A DNA stretch of 61,454 nucleotides, filler included, from Basidiobolus ranarum (Eukaryota), in assembly GCA_040143965.1 (NCBI GenBank). It is 22 parts of 22 records of this genome, joined end to end, with 100 filler letters (N's around TTAATTAATTAA, not from the genome) between each part and the next. Parts side by side here need not be neighbours in the genome. Positions count along the whole stretch, not along the records: positions 1 to 2,709 come from JASJQH010003049.1; 21 more parts are not named here. One strand, 5' to 3'. Both the position numbers and the translations under genes were made by a program. The stretch's first letter is position 1. Every line of letters starts with the position of its first letter. A model generated the notes under the pieces. It saw only the letters and a list, made by a program, of their open reading frames with translations, did no database searches and had not been told where the DNA came from. Below are positions 2-43,927 of this stretch, in pieces.

Positions 2-1117
2 GAACGCTCTTACCAATCCTTCAATAGAGGGGTCTTATGCGTCAGTGGCCCACTTGGACTATATGATGTTCGTATTCTCCGAATTATTCTCGGATCTTGG
101 GTTACTCAGAAATTTGCAAAAACCGAAACTACTTTTGGTGATGACCGTCATCTTACAAATCAAGTACTTAATTGCAACCTTAAGGTTCTTTACACACATC
201 ACGCCTATTGCTATTCAGATGCGCCAGCTACAATAGTTCGCTGGATCAAGCAACAAACTAGATGGGGCAAATCCTTCTATAGGGAACTCCTTTGGTTTCC
301 AAAAGTTTACATCCTCCATTCTCCTTGGTTATGCGTCGAGATGTGTATACAAGCATTATACCCATTCATCCTAGCTTATAATGCTTTAGCGTATCTTTAC
401 GGAAGCTATAGTCTCGAACGCTTAGCCGTATTCTTGGTAACTGTTTGGGCCGTTGGATTTATTCGAGCACTCTACGCCTTCTTTACTACATTGAAGTTGG
501 TTGGTAAGGACGAGCAGGTTAACAAGTATGATTTCGATAGCAGATTATCTCAAGAAGGGGTCCGTATTCCTCTTTTGTGCACATCCTGGGTACTCTATGC
601 TCGGTTTGACTTCTTTTTGTTCTCATTTTATGGATTCTACTACTTCTTCTTCCTCATTCCATCTAAGATGTATGCAATGATCACTCCACATGTAACACAA
701 TGGGGTACTTCTGCTCGCTCAGCTAGTGAAATGCGTAAGGGGGATTCTTTTTTGGAACGGACTTCTCATGTCCTCATTCATATCCCTTGGTTTATCGCGT
801 TCGTGGTTGGTGTAGGTCGTCTACTTTGGGTGCTATTTGGCAGTGCACTTGCCTGGCTTGTACTCATACTAATCATAGCCCCACTGACCATGCTCTATGG
901 AGATATCATCAAACGTTATCTCTGTTGTTGTACCTGTGAGAGCGATCTAGAGAAGCAAGCGGATAGTGAGCTGCAGGAGAAACTAGTCAGATCTCGTTTG
1001 ATCAACGTCGATAACTCTTCATGGCCTACATACAGTCTTATCTCCAAGGAATCTCACTCTCACCACGAGGATGAGAAAAGTGCTACAGAGGTTGAGGTCA
1101 CGCAAACACAGTACTAG
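2..1117 (+). CDS. Hyaluronan synthase-like processive glycosyltransferase (GT2, class I HAS type), 5'-partial
   Basis: The frame of ORF 341..1117 stays open back to base 2: ERSYQSFNRGVLCVSGPLGLY...TFGDDRHLTNQVL...YSDAPATIVRWIKQQTRWGKSFYRELLW...LIPSKMYAMIT...WGTSAR, plus several TM helices. These match class I HAS motifs (SGPLGxY, GDDRHLTN, QQTRWSKS, WGTSGR) rather than chitin synthase EDR/QRRRW. Confidence 0.85.
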   Translation, partial: ERSYQSFNRGVLCVSGPLGLYDVRILRIILGSWVTQKFAKTETTFGDDRHLTNQVLNCNLKVLYTHHAYCYSDAPATIVRWIKQQTRWGKSFYRELLWFPKVYILHSPWLCVEMCIQALYPFILAYNALAYLYGSYSLERLAVFLVTVWAVGFIRALYAFFTTLKLVGKDEQVNKYDFDSRLSQEGVRIPLLCTSWVLYARFDFFLFSFYGFYYFFFLIPSKMYAMITPHVTQWGTSARSASEMRKGDSFLERTSHVLIHIPWFIAFVVGVGRLLWVLFGSALAWLVLILIIAPLTMLYGDIIKRYLCCCTCESDLEKQADSELQEKLVRSRLINVDNSSWPTYSLISKESHSHHEDEKSATEVEVTQTQY

Positions 1118-2506
1118 TGGATTAATTTGGAGTACGACAATCCTCGTATTAAATTCGATTATAATATAAATGTACAATATCAAGTATGAAATAAACCATA
1201 ATTCATGTAACCACAAACTATATTACTGTCGAATACGGATTAGGGAATACGGATTAGGCTGGTATGAAGGGGGCAAATTAGGAGGGCAGGGGCGATCTAG
1301 AATGGCCTAGTAGTACCTGAAAAATCCTATTTTGGCGGATCGATATTAGTATCAACAATTCCGAATTCCATTGATAGTTCTATTAATTTTAAGTTATGAT
1401 AACAAATTCTACCTTTATGGTCGTTCAATCTATTTGGAATGAGATAATTGTGGAATGTGTTAACAGCTGCAACACTATTCGAGTATGCAACATCGATTTG
1501 ACTAATCACATTTGTAATCTGAATGAGAAGTTAAGTAAGCAGTTTTTGTTGAAAGCAATGGCATGGATTCATGCTAATGCACAATGCACTCCTTCGATCG
1601 CAATCAGCTGCAATAAGATATACAGTACGATAAAGGTCACTTTGCTCACTTGAACCGAATTAACGCGACCTGTTAGCAAAAATAAACACTGAATATACCA
1701 ATCATGATAAACCACTGAAGTACCAAGTTCTAGCTGTGTTCAATAGCTACCATTTGCAAGTACCAAGTACCATTACCGTGATCTTTCATTGACTCATAAC
1801 CTTGCTTATACACTTGGCTTGAGGTGAACCAAGTATAAGTTCACTACTTCAGCCAACCAAGAGATTCAGTAACTTCTCGCAACTTGATAATCTAGTTGCT
1901 CTATTGAGAAGTAATCGGTAAGATCATCCATTCATCACCTATAAGGGTTTATTCTTTACTTGTGGGAAAGGAGCAATGTTAGGCCACCATTAAGCTTACA
2001 CGATTTTTATGTGAGCAAAGCCCAAACGATGTCTACAGGTTTCACGCCAACAGCATGACTGCAACAGAGATGAATATCATTACTTATTTCAAAATTGTAG
2101 TCAAATACGCTTGTCAGAGTTTATTGAAGCTGATCACGTGCAAGTTTGAAATGCAATGAATTATGGCATGACATTGCGGTGTTGCTGTTTCGAAATTGAT
2201 GAGTGTAATCAAGATTCATATCTAGTGAATTCTGTGATCTCCAACCTTAACAGATACCATCAACTCCTTGCTTGTCACAATTGATGACTCGCAATATACC
2301 AAGAGAATGAGGTAAAATCGGTGACAACAGGTGCGAAAATACCCAGCTAATGCAAGAGTTAAAGTTGCTGTTTGTTCAGATTGGCTGAATTGTTCGAGTT
2401 CATCGGGATTGAAGTGTTTCCTTCATGCAATGTTTACATGTAGTCGGTTCTTGAACATCCCTATATGATTTATGCATCCGGTGGAGCACGTTATGTCACT
2501 AGTTTG

Positions 2507-2514
2507 TATATAAA
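2507..2514 (+). promoter_or_regulatory. TATA-like box upstream of the ORF at 2565
   Basis: TATATAAA about 50 bp before the ATG at 2565, which has an A-rich context (AATAATG). Confidence 0.45.
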
Positions 2515-2564
2515 GTAGCCACTGGTTTGCCCTGTGCAAACATAAATTTACTACCCAATAAATA

Positions 2565-2709
2565 ATGCCCATCTTCCAACCTAACGATCTGAACACCCTT
2601 CTAGATTTACATGGCAGGCAGAGCGGTACAAAAGTCGCTCTTATTTACACCAATGCTCAGGGTGAAGAGCAGAAAATCACATACAAGCAGTTCCGGGATT
2701 TGACCCTCT
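2565..2709 (+). CDS. N-terminus of an adenylate-forming (AMP-binding) enzyme, acyl-CoA ligase or NRPS-like; 3'-partial
   Basis: MPIFQPNDLNTLLDLHGRQSGTKVALIY...GEEQKITYKQFRDLT resembles the 'kvAli...lTY.el' A1 region of ANL-superfamily enzymes. Only 48 codons precede the contig end. Confidence 0.55.
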
Positions 2710-39738: not shown

Positions 39739-40602
39739 TTATATCCGGGGTAAATACTGTCTATGTTCAAGCATATTTCCAGCAATATCAATTCTCTCCA
39801 CTTCTTCATCAGTTAGCTTAAATGTACCAAGTTCCAGGAATTCAGTTAAGCGATGAGGCTTACTAGATGTTGTTACCACCATATTTCCTTTATTGACAGA
39901 CCATCTTAAAAGTACTTGACTGGTAGTTTTGGAATATTTCTTAGCAATCTCCTCTACTACACTCTCCACTGGACCATCGGATTTGTGTACAATTGGAACC
40001 AGCCCTCCATATGCCTCAGTTAAAATTCCATGGTTTTCAGTATAGAGAATCAGTTCACGTGACTGAAGATATGGGTGAAACTCTATCTGATTGACTACTG
40101 GTTTGATACGAGCAATGGGAAGAAGTACATCCAAATCTTTAATGTGGAAGTTAGATACACCAATAGCACGAGCTAAGCCCTGATCAACAAGATTCTCCAT
40201 CTCTGGCCAAGCCTCCTCAAGTATGATCCCATGGGACTCCTTGTTAAATAAAGGAGAATGAACAAGGTACAAGTCAACGTACTCCAACTTTAGGCGAGCC
40301 AAAGACTCCTGAAGAGCCTTTTTAGGATCACCAATATGTGGCCAAACTTTGGTTGTAACGAAGATTTGATTCCTTGGAATTTCTGACTCTTCAATGGCCA
40401 AGCCTACATCTTTCTCAGTTCCATACATTTCTGCAGTATCTATATGGCGATAACCAATTTTCAGTGCCTCCTTAATGCTCTCCACCAGTTTGCGGTTAAT
40501 AGGTCCATCATTTGTGCCAGTATACCAGGCAGTTCCGGTGCCAAATGCAACAGTTGGCGCAGTTATATCGGCTGTTAAAGAAGTTGTAAGTTGATTAGAC
40601 AT
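39739..40602 (-). CDS. Aldo-keto reductase (NADPH-dependent; resembles fungal alpha-keto amide / polyketone reductases)
   Basis: Intact, intronless 287-aa ORF with FGTG, IDTAEMY, TTKV, DLYLVH, IGVSNF and NQIEFHP; the D-Y-K-H tetrad is present. Confidence 0.95.
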   Translation of the reverse strand: MSNQLTTSLTADITAPTVAFGTGTAWYTGTNDGPINRKLVESIKEALKIGYRHIDTAEMYGTEKDVGLAIEESEIPRNQIFVTTKVWPHIGDPKKALQESLARLKLEYVDLYLVHSPLFNKESHGIILEEAWPEMENLVDQGLARAIGVSNFHIKDLDVLLPIARIKPVVNQIEFHPYLQSRELILYTENHGILTEAYGGLVPIVHKSDGPVESVVEEIAKKYSKTTSQVLLRWSVNKGNMVVTTSSKPHRLTEFLELGTFKLTDEEVERIDIAGNMLEHRQYLPRI

Positions 40603-42028
40603 GGATTCGATGCCTTTTGTTCAAGAATTCCGACTTTTTATTAAAATCGAAGGGTCAGTCACAAGGCATTTCGATTTCGGAAGTACTGATAAAGGGGCTA
40701 GGGTATGGCTTAGTATTACGATGAATCTCAGATACTTGAAGTATTGCAATGTTATGTGAATATTGAACCGTAAACGATGGATACAGTAGAGTATGATCAC
40801 TCCTTTGTTTGATTTTGGTTCCATTTCAATTAAACCATTTCATTCTTAGATCACGTAACCACCTTGGATGGATGGTGAATTTACTTAGTAGAGAAATGAA
40901 TCATCGAATCATCTGCTACGCCTCTAAGTTTCAATTTCAATGACAACAATCTGAGTCTCGGCTTTAATAAAGTCAACTAATTTAGGAAACCATGAAACAC
41001 GAACAAGCACCCCGCCCAAGCTGGATTAGCCCCCGCAAAAAGGAACATCAAGTTCTACTCTATAGGAAGATGAAAGATGAAAGTCAGATACAAAAATTGG
41101 TTGGAAGGTAGAGGGAAGGAAATGACATTCCCAGACGTTAGCAAAGTCAAAATTAATGAACTTTTCAGGTTGAGAAAACAACAAAAAATACGACAGTGGT
41201 TATAAATCGGATAAACACTTAATAGGCAGCAACTCACTACAATGGTGACTCTCGGAACCGGAGGGGCAACACCAGTGACAAGGTAAGCATGGCGCCAAAC
41301 CAAGCACCTGTAACTGATAAAGCAACCACTAACAGTAGATATGATTCTGAAGAGCCCAATTAGAAAGGGATAATCTCGTTTCTCAGAATACCCTCCATAT
41401 CGAAACTATATACTCAAAGTCGGACTAAAATACTTAGGATACGATGGACAAGATGAATGATAACAACCATAAATTGTAGCATATGTTGGGGAAACTTGAT
41501 ACGCAAGTCAATATCGTACAATCTGGATTCTGGCAAAAATATCAACCTTAAACTTTAAGCATCAAAAAGATGCTTCACTCTGTCTAGCAGGCGTCTTTGA
41601 TCTCAAAGCAACAGCACCTTCCACCTGCCATTTACCAAATTGATTAGAATGGTGCTCGTCAGTCAGCCAAGATGCCCAAGTAGCCCATAAAGCAATACGG
41701 CTTACTTCTACTATGAGTCTGAGTTAGCCCATTATGCTCATTTATTTAGTAGCGACTTCCAAATTGCAATGAATTCAATTCAAACAATGGGATTATAGTT
41801 CTTAAACTACCGAGCCCCCCCCCACGGGGTAACAATCTTAACCCCTGGCCCGAGCTAGGGACCAATGTTATCTCCATGGTCATGGAGTGAAGAAGGATAG
41901 ATTTAAAGCGGCCAAATACTATCGAATNNNNNNNNNNNNNNNNNNNNNNNNNNNNNNNNNNNNNNNNNNNNTTAATTAATTAANNNNNNNNNNNNNNNNN
42001 NNNNNNNNNNNNNNNNNNNNNNNNNNNC

Positions 42029-43927
42029 CATACCCCTGATGGTTCTCCTTGTGGTCTTTTAAACCATCTTGCTCACCAGTGTAAGATCTCTACCGACTTC
42101 CCCGATACTTCTAGAATTCCTTACCATCTGGCCTCTTTGGGTGTTTCTCAATCACTTGTTCATACTACTAGTGGTCCTAAGAACATTTCAGTCCAGTTGG
42201 ACGGTAAAGTCGTTGGTTGGTGTACTCCTGAGCTTGCAAAGGAGGTTGCCAACAAACTTAGAGTATGGAAAATCGAGAAGAAGAACGGCATTCCTCTTGA
42301 TCTTGAAATTGGTTATGTACCCAGTTCTAATGGTGGTCAATATCCTGGTCTTTTCCTGTTCTCTACTCCTGCTCGTATGTCTCGTCCTGTTAAATACTTG
42401 GCTAACGGAAAGACTGACATGGTTGGTCCTTTCGAACAAGTATATTTGGATATTGCTTGCATGGATGATGAAGTGGTTCCAGGGACCTCTACTCATCAAG
42501 AGTTCACTCCCACTAACATCCTTTCTGTGGTTGCCAATCTCACCCCCTTCTCCGATTTCAATCAGTCCCCTCGTAATATGTACCAATGTCAGATGGGTAA
42601 GCAGGCCATGGGTACTCCAGCCCAAGCTCTGAGATATCGTACTGATAACAAGATGTACCGTATTCAAACTGGTCAAACTCCCATTGTTCGTCCTCATTTG
42701 CATAACCAATATGGTATGGATGGTTTCCCCAATGGTATGAACGCCATCGTTGCCGTTATTAGTTACACCGGTTACGATATGGAGGATGCTATGATTCTGA
42801 ACAAATCTTCTCACGAACGTGGCTTTGGGTACGGTTCAGTCTACAAATCCGAGGTGATTGACTTGTCGGATTTGAAGCGTCCTGGAGAGCCTATCACCTG
42901 CCACTTTGGTATTAACGAGAACGCCAATCGTGCTTGGAGAGAGAAGCTTGATTCTGATGGTTTACCATATATTGGTGTGAAACTCACCAATGGAGATCCT
43001 ATGTATGGTTATGTTAATGATGTTTCCGGCAAGACAGTCGTCAAAAGATACAAGGGGTTGGAAGATGCCTACGTTGATGAAGTGCGTGTTTTAGGTAATG
43101 ATACTGGTGATGAGGAATGCCAAAAAGTCCACATCAAACTTCGTATCCCTCGTCCACCTATTATTGGTGATAAATTCTCTTCTCGTCACGGACAGAAGGG
43201 TGTTTGCTCGCAAAAGTGGCCAGCTGTCGATATGCCTTTCACCGAGTCTGGAATGCAACCCGATGTTATCATTAACCCACACGCTTTCCCCTCTAGAATG
43301 ACCATTGGTATGTTCGTCGAGAGTTTGGCCGCTAAAAGTGGTGCCCTTCATGGAACCGTTCAAGATTCCACTCCATTCCAATTCAATGAGGACCATACTG
43401 CTGCTGATTTCTTCGGTGAGCAATTGTTAGCAGCTGGATACAATTACCATGGTAATGAGCCCATGTACAGTGGTATCACCGGTCAAGAATTCAAGGCAGA
43501 TATCTACATTGGATGTGTTTACTATCAAAGATTAAGACACATGGTTTCCGATAAGTACCAAGTTCGTACCACAGGTCCAGTCCATGCTCTGACTCAGCAG
43601 CCTCTTAAGGGTCGTAAACGTGCAGGTGGTATTCGTTTCGGTGAGATGGAACGTGATTCGTTACTTGCTCACGGTGTTTCCTTCTTGTTACAAGATCGTT
43701 TGATGAATTGTTCGGATTACTCGCAAACACTAGTATGCAAGTTGTGCGGTTCCATTGTATCTCCAATCTCTACCGCATCTACTGCCTCTTCCATGCGTCG
43801 TGAACATGAATGCCGTTCATGTAAAACATCTGAAGGACTTGAGTTAATTGCGGTACCTTTCGTATTCCGTTACTTGGCAACCGAACTGATGGCAATGAAT
43901 ATTCAAATGAAGTTAGAAGTGAAATAG
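42029..43927 (+). CDS. RPA135: RNA polymerase I second-largest subunit, 5'-partial
   Basis: Open from the contig start (HTPDGSPCGLLNHL). Contains TPFSDFNQSPRNMYQCQMGKQ, GDKFSSRHGQKG, YYQRLRHMVSDK and GGIRFGEMERD, with Pol I-type variants. Confidence 0.96.
   Translation, partial: HTPDGSPCGLLNHLAHQCKISTDFPDTSRIPYHLASLGVSQSLVHTTSGPKNISVQLDGKVVGWCTPELAKEVANKLRVWKIEKKNGIPLDLEIGYVPSSNGGQYPGLFLFSTPARMSRPVKYLANGKTDMVGPFEQVYLDIACMDDEVVPGTSTHQEFTPTNILSVVANLTPFSDFNQSPRNMYQCQMGKQAMGTPAQALRYRTDNKMYRIQTGQTPIVRPHLHNQYGMDGFPNGMNAIVAVISYTGYDMEDAMILNKSSHERGFGYGSVYKSEVIDLSDLKRPGEPITCHFGINENANRAWREKLDSDGLPYIGVKLTNGDPMYGYVNDVSGKTVVKRYKGLEDAYVDEVRVLGNDTGDEECQKVHIKLRIPRPPIIGDKFSSRHGQKGVCSQKWPAVDMPFTESGMQPDVIINPHAFPSRMTIGMFVESLAAKSGALHGTVQDSTPFQFNEDHTAADFFGEQLLAAGYNYHGNEPMYSGITGQEFKADIYIGCVYYQRLRHMVSDKYQVRTTGPVHALTQQPLKGRKRAGGIRFGEMERDSLLAHGVSFLLQDRLMNCSDYSQTLVCKLCGSIVSPISTASTASSMRREHECRSCKTSEGLELIAVPFVFRYLATELMAMNIQMKLEVK

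Follow-up and report, generated by a model that had tools for sequence, protein, structure and literature searches.

Does the early-diverging fungus Basidiobolus ranarum possess a hyaluronan synthase (HAS) of the vertebrate type, and what would such an enzyme make? The locus that raises this question lies at the start of the window, i.e. the whole stretch of 61,454 nucleotides that we analysed. Translation of positions 2..1117 (plus strand) gave an open frame of 371 codons and a stop, which requires no intron. The motifs reported in the first-pass annotation were found as described: SGPLGLY at 44-64, GDDR at 137-148, QQTRW at 251-265 followed by GKSFYRE, and WGTSAR at 701-718. The features of the locus are:

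2..1117, plus strand: 3' part of a putative class 1-NR HAS-family GT2 gene, equivalent to residues 299-674 of paralog P0108; the 5' end is lost at the contig start
5..7, plus strand: Arg equivalent to Xenopus HAS1 R296, in interface helix 1 near GlcA-2 (alignments; role from the accessible part of PMC11750622)
38..64, plus strand: switch loop C-V-SGPLGLY, its Cys equivalent to Xenopus C307 (alignment, translation)
137..148, plus strand: GDDR, catalytic base motif, Xenopus D342/R343 (alignment, translation)
251..286, plus strand: QQTRW-GKSFYRE, interface helix 2, with Xenopus R381, W382 and S385 (alignment, translation)
464..466, plus strand: Arg at the channel position of Xenopus K448, in TMH4 (alignment)
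491..598, plus strand: 36-residue insert between TMH4 and interface helix 3 (alignment, model)
701..718, plus strand: gating loop WGTSAR, with Xenopus W491, T493 and R496 (alignment, translation)
779..922, plus strand: TMH5-6, two membrane helices past the gating loop, in the vertebrate/viral layout (helices 558-577 and 580-605 of the paralog model; hydropathy)
923..1114, plus strand: C-terminal tail, poorly ordered (pLDDT <50 over much of the tail in the paralog model)
2565..2708, plus strand: start of a neighbouring adenylation-thiolation-reductase gene, lost at the contig end; a whole copy lies on the homologous contig C28
2710..2809, no strand: artificial linker N44-TTAATTAATTAA-N44, past which the gene is linked to nothing

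The gene begins at the first base of its contig (G000:C3049, positions 1-2709) and is linked to that contig only, as the window is made of 22 contigs of ~2.7 kb that are artificially joined. The full gene has ~670 residues, of which the frame represents the last 371 codons; alignment to the 681-aa paralog places ~298 N-terminal codons, with TMH1-2 and the E, KR and DxD motifs, beyond the contig start. The database gene call on this contig (P0002) has 258 aa and lacks GDDR and QQTRW because its start was placed at the ATG at 341. Thus, the catalytic motifs do escape the ORF track, as previously remarked, but what had been called the catalytic half is only the second part of the catalytic domain. 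In a phmmer search of the PDB, the frame matched five sequences at E<=1, all of them hyaluronan synthases (5/5), with E-values of 9e-35 for Xenopus HAS1 and 2e-25 for chlorovirus HAS; judging by these scores, the likeness is not due to chance.

The remaining parts of the window were ruled out as gene context, the contigs being unlinked. The RNA polymerase I gene, the aldo-keto reductase and the retrotransposon pieces are therefore not neighbours of the gene, because they are joined to it by artificial linkers. The first corresponds to the 3' part of the gene for the second-largest subunit (42029-43927) and the second to a piece at 39739-40620, each on its own unlinked contig, and LTR retrotransposon remains occur on many other contigs of the window.

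Searching the genome yielded two whole, intronless paralogs, on contigs C7979 (681 aa, P0108) and C68 (666 aa, P0109), which are 76-77% identical to the window protein. Both carry the database label Basidiobolus ranarum, in keeping with the proposed early-diverging fungal host. Four further HAS-like copies are dead (C28, C8146, C4354 and C7617). A protein of B. meristosporus shares 81% identity with P0108 and also with the window protein. The paralogs are flanked by copia remains and by genes for CAP, enoyl-CoA hydratase, bestrophin, carbonic anhydrase and the adenylation-thiolation-reductase enzyme, their dS is near 2, and GC3 is 0.42, compared with 0.39 for the RNA polymerase I gene. These ordinary flanks and the GC3 match bear out the fungal origin that the first-pass annotation had wished to see confirmed; contamination is very unlikely because of the Basidiobolus labels, the B. 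meristosporus orthologue, the fungal flanks and the GC3 match. The UDP-glucose dehydrogenase that it had proposed to look for is present as two genes.

The locus and its flanks recur on C3049, C4354, C28, C8146, C68 and C7617 in sets at ~90% and 74-80% identity. By their sequence identities, these sets suggest that the segment or the genome was doubled twice and that HAS-like copies were lost. A second, distant HAS-like pair with an apparent intron is found on C829 (L007/L016) and C7491 (L008/L017). The genome also harbours six genes of the CPS1/ZtGT2 type (C21, C7320, C518, C6897, C6902 and C2233; L027-L032), and thus both fungal HAS-like types.

The AlphaFold2 model of P0108 (pLDDT 82, pTM 0.84) has, in order, two N-terminal membrane helices, a GT-A domain, interface helices, TMH3-4, the gating loop and TMH5-6, i.e. 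six membrane helices, two of them after the gating loop. In sequence searches of the PDB, P0108 retrieved HAS chains only (5/5 matches; E 2e-70 for Xenopus HAS1, 2e-67 for chlorovirus HAS). The top 13 matches of a fold search with the model were also HAS, with E-values of 1e-25 or better, and the next was cellulose synthase at 2e-12; cellulose and chitin synthases thus lie 13 orders of magnitude below HAS. In the ESM Atlas, the first match is an ascomycete cluster auto-named hyaluronan synthase 2, and chordate HAS clusters come next. The 36-residue insert is confined to the 4 Basidiobolus rows among 27 aligned and was modelled as strands near the gating loop plus a low-confidence loop.

We mapped 20 functional sites of Xenopus HAS1, as given in the accessible part of PMC11750622, onto P0108 by alignment, with a 13-residue offset. 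P0108 is identical at 16/20 of them (E109, K218, D242, R287, Y288, F292, R296, C307, D342, R343, R381, W382, S385, W491, T493 and R496). The changed sites are E367 (Asp), H72 (Phe), C337 (Thr) and K448 (Arg). Chlorovirus HAS also has Asp and Phe at the first two, and mutants at the other two are partly tolerated, the Xenopus K448R mutant retaining partial activity (PMC11750622, accessible part). In the window copy, the Thr at the priming-loop Cys site (C337) immediately precedes GDDR. The E, KR, DxD, GDD(R) and QxxRW motifs of a single GT-A domain are all present in P0108 and P0109, and the window part has GDDR and QQTRW only. The two arginines of interface helix 1 and the basic channel residue are R291, R300 and R453 in P0108 (R287, R296 and K448 in Xenopus); the R287 equivalent of the window copy would lie upstream of the contig start and is retained in the paralogs.

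The R287 site, near GlcA in the channel, is the most informative of these positions. It is Arg in 91/91 named fungal matches, a count that is biased because the matches were picked up by shared words, and Glu in 2/2 NodC and 6/6 of the genome's own chitin synthases aligned. According to the accessible part of PMC12987647, the donor-site Lys and the Arg of QxxRW frame the GlcA carboxylate. In our alignment both also occur in NodC and chitin synthases, and R296 also in NodC; R287 and GDD versus GED are therefore the only separators from these enzymes, and the sequence cannot prove the product, because the residues that sense the carboxylate are held in common. Many prokaryotic homologues retain the arginines at both the R287 and R296 sites.

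Among solved structures, the vertebrate enzymes HAS1-3, and Xenopus laevis HAS1 in particular, are closest by both sequence and fold. They share with the Basidiobolus family the six membrane helices, the three interface helices, the gating loop followed by TMH5-6, and the catalytic, acceptor and gating residues. Identity to Xenopus HAS1 is ~27% over the fold, and the two differ at the four sites given above, in WGTSAR versus WGTSGR, and in the insert past TMH4 and the long disordered tail of the Basidiobolus proteins. The PBCV-1 enzyme is similarly close (E 2e-67, TM ~0.8 by target) and shares Asp at E367 and Phe at H72, but reads GDDRR and WGTRG where Basidiobolus has GDDRH and WGTSAR. The motif set is thus less diagnostic of vertebrate and chlorovirus HAS than first supposed, as chlorovirus HAS itself has GDDRR and a search with the pattern GDDRHLTN found GDDRH and QQxRW in many prokaryotic homologues too.

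The known fungal type, that of Cryptococcus CPS1 and ZtGT2 ('gamma-HAS'), is also a processive GT2 with GDD, QxxRW and WGT. Its seven signatures in the accessible part of bioRxiv 10.64898/2026.02.21.705424 (PTI, GGVxT, WExL, RTAxY, FxxRW, WxxxP and RL) are absent from P0108, P0109 and P0001 (0/7), whereas each of the six CPS1-type genes of the genome has 6-7/7. The CPS1 type has RL where the Basidiobolus family has RY, and a three-helix pore with the gating loop followed by a disordered tail, in contrast to the six predicted helices, two past the loop, of the Basidiobolus family. P0108 scores 5-17 bits against the CPS1-type genes of its own genome and ~200-275 bits against the closer viral HAS-like proteins. 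This separation rests on motifs, scores and helix layout because the tree leaves the long CPS1 branch without a firm position (AU p 0.20). NodC and chitin synthases share the GT2 fold, KR, DxD and QxxRW with the Basidiobolus family, and NodC also SGP and the R296 arginine. They differ in GED and in Glu at the R287 site; as anticipated, NodC reads EDR/QQLRW and 13/14 chitin-synthase-like loci fetched from the genome read EDR/QRRRW. The recCHS, which the accessible part of PMC5122149 describes, with HAS as outgroup, has a CHS-like C-terminal half and is set apart by this description from the Basidiobolus gene, whose C-terminal half is HAS-like.

The family searches returned 106 proteins in the first round and 681 in the second, of which the best 120 of 681 are listed. 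The named fungi among the matches listed include Mucorales (many genera), Umbelopsis, Bifiguratus, Mortierellales, chytrids, Gonapodya, Neocallimastigales, Basidiomycota, Saitoella and Pezizomycotina. Homologues also occur on 35 viral contigs, many in giant-virus bins, and 102 prokaryotic homologues were found, of which 80 were kept. From 102 aligned rows, 66 remained after near-duplicates were dropped, for a quick tree, and 39 for a careful LG+G4 tree. Vertebrates were represented by two fish HASs, chloroviruses by IMG/VR contigs with GDDRR, and CPS1 by the genome's own genes, recognised by motifs; the rows comprised no Xenopus, PBCV-1, Streptococcus HasA or recCHS sequences. An HAS-like protein was also seen in the annelid Owenia (P0268). 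On viral contig L049:1095-2396, a frame that looks by eye like a nucleotide-sugar dehydrogenase lies directly upstream of the viral HAS-like gene.

The fungal, vertebrate and viral-contig proteins fall on one branch (SH-aLRT 99-100, ultrafast bootstrap 89, unstarred in the careful tree), outside which lie NodC, most prokaryotic homologues and the chitin synthases. The order within this branch is without firm support: fungal monophyly is weak (SH-aLRT 53-83), an AU test of a single clade of all fungal HAS-like rows does not discriminate (p 0.46), and, in a quick tree of 252 rows, viral and unnamed lineages fall between the fungal groups. In the 39-row tree, Dikarya form the sister group of the four Basidiobolus sequences (100/99), and the second subfamily of the genus groups with Mortierella (100/100) and chytrids (96/93). 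AU tests rejected Basidiobolus as sister to vertebrate HAS (p 0.0004) and to the chlorovirus-like clade represented by the IMG/VR contigs (p 0.0005), so that the special closeness to the chlorovirus enzyme suggested by the first-pass annotation finds no support. They also rejected clades with chitin synthases (p 0.022), against the grouping that would have undone the HAS assignment, and with NodC (p 9e-6). Uniting CPS1-like rows with Basidiobolus (p 0.20) or with all fungal rows (p 0.22) did not discriminate. In the 252-row tree, built with FastTree only, a protein of the chytrid Physocladia and an unnamed one (P0246, P0275) adjoin the chlorovirus-like clade, at 97.

Mucoromycotina and Dikarya group together in the species tree, and the AU test rejected this grouping for the family (p 5e-5); the ascomycete copies are nested among basidiomycete copies in the quick 66-row tree. 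From these phylogenies, the best reading is an old fungal family with early duplication and loss, perhaps including old fungus-to-fungus transfers, and not a recent gain by Basidiobolus. The surmise of a horizontally acquired gene finds no support, nor would the gene be rare, as its family is widespread in fungi.

Taken together, the exclusive HAS matches in the PDB, the HAS fold matches, the six helices, R287, the position in the tree, the two UDP-glucose dehydrogenase genes and the dN/dS values are best explained if the window gene represents an ancient fungal lineage within the class 1-NR HAS family (six-helix, vertebrate/chlorovirus-type), called 'alpha-HAS' in the accessible part of bioRxiv 10.64898/2026.02.21.705424. 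The assignment by the first-pass annotation to class I HAS, and not to chitin synthases, NodC or CPS1, is thus upheld by the PDB matches, fold, residues, tree and CPS1 signatures.

Is the window copy itself alive? Its dN/dS is 0.07-0.10 relative to the paralogs. Its dead twin on C4354 is 90% identical; over 351 codons, the window copy has gained 7 silent changes and no replacement after the two diverged, whereas the twin has 7 silent changes, 43 replacements and 4 stops (Fisher p 8e-6 for the contrast). By these counts, purifying selection acted on the window copy up to a recent time. That it is dead by now is a proposition to which we give slightly less than even weight, and which is compatible with any product: a rearrangement would have fused its 5' 172 codons to a multi-copy kinase region, with the middle removed or displaced. 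The sole candidate for this 5' end, on contig C8472, carries codons 1-172 of a HAS-like gene, stop-free and undecayed, with 6 private changes in 171 sites, equal to intact C7979; it is too well kept to be part of twin C4354. Past codon 172, C8472 switches to sequence common to C1652 and C6982, leading to a kinase-like gene. Upstream of its HAS-like codons, C8472 matches the DNA that precedes the dead copy on C28, and the DNA that follows this dead copy matches window positions 1471-2709; the synteny of C8472 with C28 rests on ~370 bases of non-coding match because the carbonic anhydrase neighbour of C28 was not seen upstream on C8472. In a genome search that scores the best candidates only, codons 173-298 of the window copy, the third copy, were not found, and four other copies are already dead. 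Against a recent death, the window part carries neither stops nor frameshifts nor replacements that postdate its separation from the twin, and the assembly has 13,754 contigs; the junction could reflect a mis-join or be confined to one allele, and C8472 might represent an additional copy. The arrangement on C8472 may accordingly reflect a very recent break, an error of joining in the assembly or yet another copy. The kinase-like region adjoining the HAS 5' piece (L009:526-2653; Pkinase, DUF6826) is multi-copy, contains a repetitive coiled-coil frame and is 81% like C1652. As the window copy is partial and possibly broken, it adds little by itself; activity is more safely ascribed to the intact paralogs on C68 and C7979, the window copy having perhaps been broken recently.

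We infer substrates, product, location and role of the family as follows. Class 1-NR HAS acts as a monomer. A whole copy would be a processive GT2 of the plasma membrane, in which one cytosolic active site, with the GDD base, the QQTRW helix and the WGTSAR gating loop, would alternate UDP-GlcNAc and UDP-glucuronic acid and add the sugars at the non-reducing end. The acidic chain would then leave through an arginine-lined channel of the enzyme itself and reach the wall or outer matrix. Hyaluronan (HA) would be the most likely product, which we hold with roughly even credence. Against HA stand the substitutions at H72, C337 and K448, the donor-site residues held in common with NodC and chitin synthases, and the arginines retained in many prokaryotic homologues; UDP-GlcA is also the precursor of other polyuronides; a 2025 review, in its accessible part, states that HA is confirmed in no fungus except Cryptococcus (PMC12691920).

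The same machine might instead make another acidic polymer, either a beta-1,4-glucuronan of the mucoric acid type or some other GlcA heteropolymer of zygomycete walls, which we consider unlikely but the most serious of the other products. The accessible part of a review of Mucorales walls (PMC6433966) describes walls and exopolysaccharides rich in beta-1,4-linked GlcA, with beta-1,4-glucuronan and mucoran, and ascribes a GlcA polymer to a membrane-bound UDP-GlcA transferase without an identified gene; it does not mention hyaluronan there, yet Mucorales carry the HAS-like family, in many genera among the matches listed. An arginine-lined channel entrance would fit any polyanion, and chlorovirus HAS, when given cellobiose or chitobiose at high concentration, extends them with GlcA (PMC12987647, accessible part). 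However, the collar for the GlcNAc acceptor is unchanged (Y288, F292, C307, D342, R343, W382 and S385), the six CPS1-type genes offer other candidates for polyuronides, and wall data for Basidiobolus were not found in the literature searched.

Less probable still is that the family makes chitin or chito-oligomers, as NodC does, its HAS look being ancestral. Some HAS enzymes do make chitin oligomers (bioRxiv 10.64898/2026.02.21.705424, accessible part). The best NCBIfam match is NodC (TIGR04242, E 2e-40), but with 139 bits against a cut-off of 550. The second Basidiobolus subfamily (C829 and C7491) has Trp at the R287 site in both copies, Arg being found in all other fungal rows aligned; the family is therefore able to lose that residue, and the substitution may hint at a changed product or short chains. 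In contrast, the family proper has GDD instead of GED, GDDR/QQTRW instead of GEDR/QRRRW, and Arg instead of Glu at the R287 site; it forms no clade with NodC or chitin synthases by the AU tests, and the genome has many ordinary chitin synthases.

Finally, it is very improbable that the gene was recently acquired by horizontal transfer, whether from a vertebrate host, from a giant virus or from a bacterium, or that it stems from contamination: the lack of an intron, the weak fungal monophyly and interleaving with viral lineages, the life of Basidiobolus in amphibian and reptile guts and the horizontal gene gain reportedly found in this genus all fit a foreign origin, but this is largely refuted by the B. 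meristosporus orthologue, the paralogs with their high dS amid fungal genes and copia remains, the GC3 match, the Dikarya sister group and the AU tests against vertebrate and chlorovirus-like sisters.

No paper describing a vertebrate-type HAS in fungi was found in the literature searched, outside which most subscription papers lie, and such an enzyme seems to be undescribed in print. Databases already label many members of the family 'hyaluronan synthase' by automatic transfer; the likeness is therefore on record, if unexamined. The only fungal HAS type in the literature found is the CPS1 type. In the parts accessible, fungal HA is limited to Cryptococcus in PMC12691920, CPS1 is the only fungal HAS named in PMC9676211, and PMC5653360, on the CPS1/ZtGT2 family, states that the structure of the CPS1 product was not determined. 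The CPS1-seeded survey of bioRxiv 10.64898/2026.02.21.705424 reports, in its accessible part, 68 three-helix fungal HASs outside the animal/viral clade and an alpha class of vertebrate and viral enzymes only, with no Basidiobolus in the main text. The Basidiobolus-type family contradicts this picture of fungal HAS as restricted to Cryptococcus or to three-helix enzymes, and bears both on the origin of vertebrate-type HAS and on what makes the GlcA polymers of zygomycete walls. That genuine hyaluronan is produced by a six-helix synthase of the vertebrate type in many fungi, among them chytrids, gut anaerobes, Mucorales, Basidiobolus and Dikarya, is a tentative proposal, which we hold somewhat less firmly than its opposite. 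If it is true, the enzyme family would be far older than vertebrates, and the chlorovirus gene need not be derived from animals, given that one quick tree puts a chytrid protein beside the chlorovirus-like clade. A host-like coat could then be worn by opportunists, Basidiobolus and Rhizopus among them, and, if HA is made, biotechnology would gain a eukaryotic HAS of non-animal origin and the family would be a candidate factor at the cell surface in zygomycete infections.
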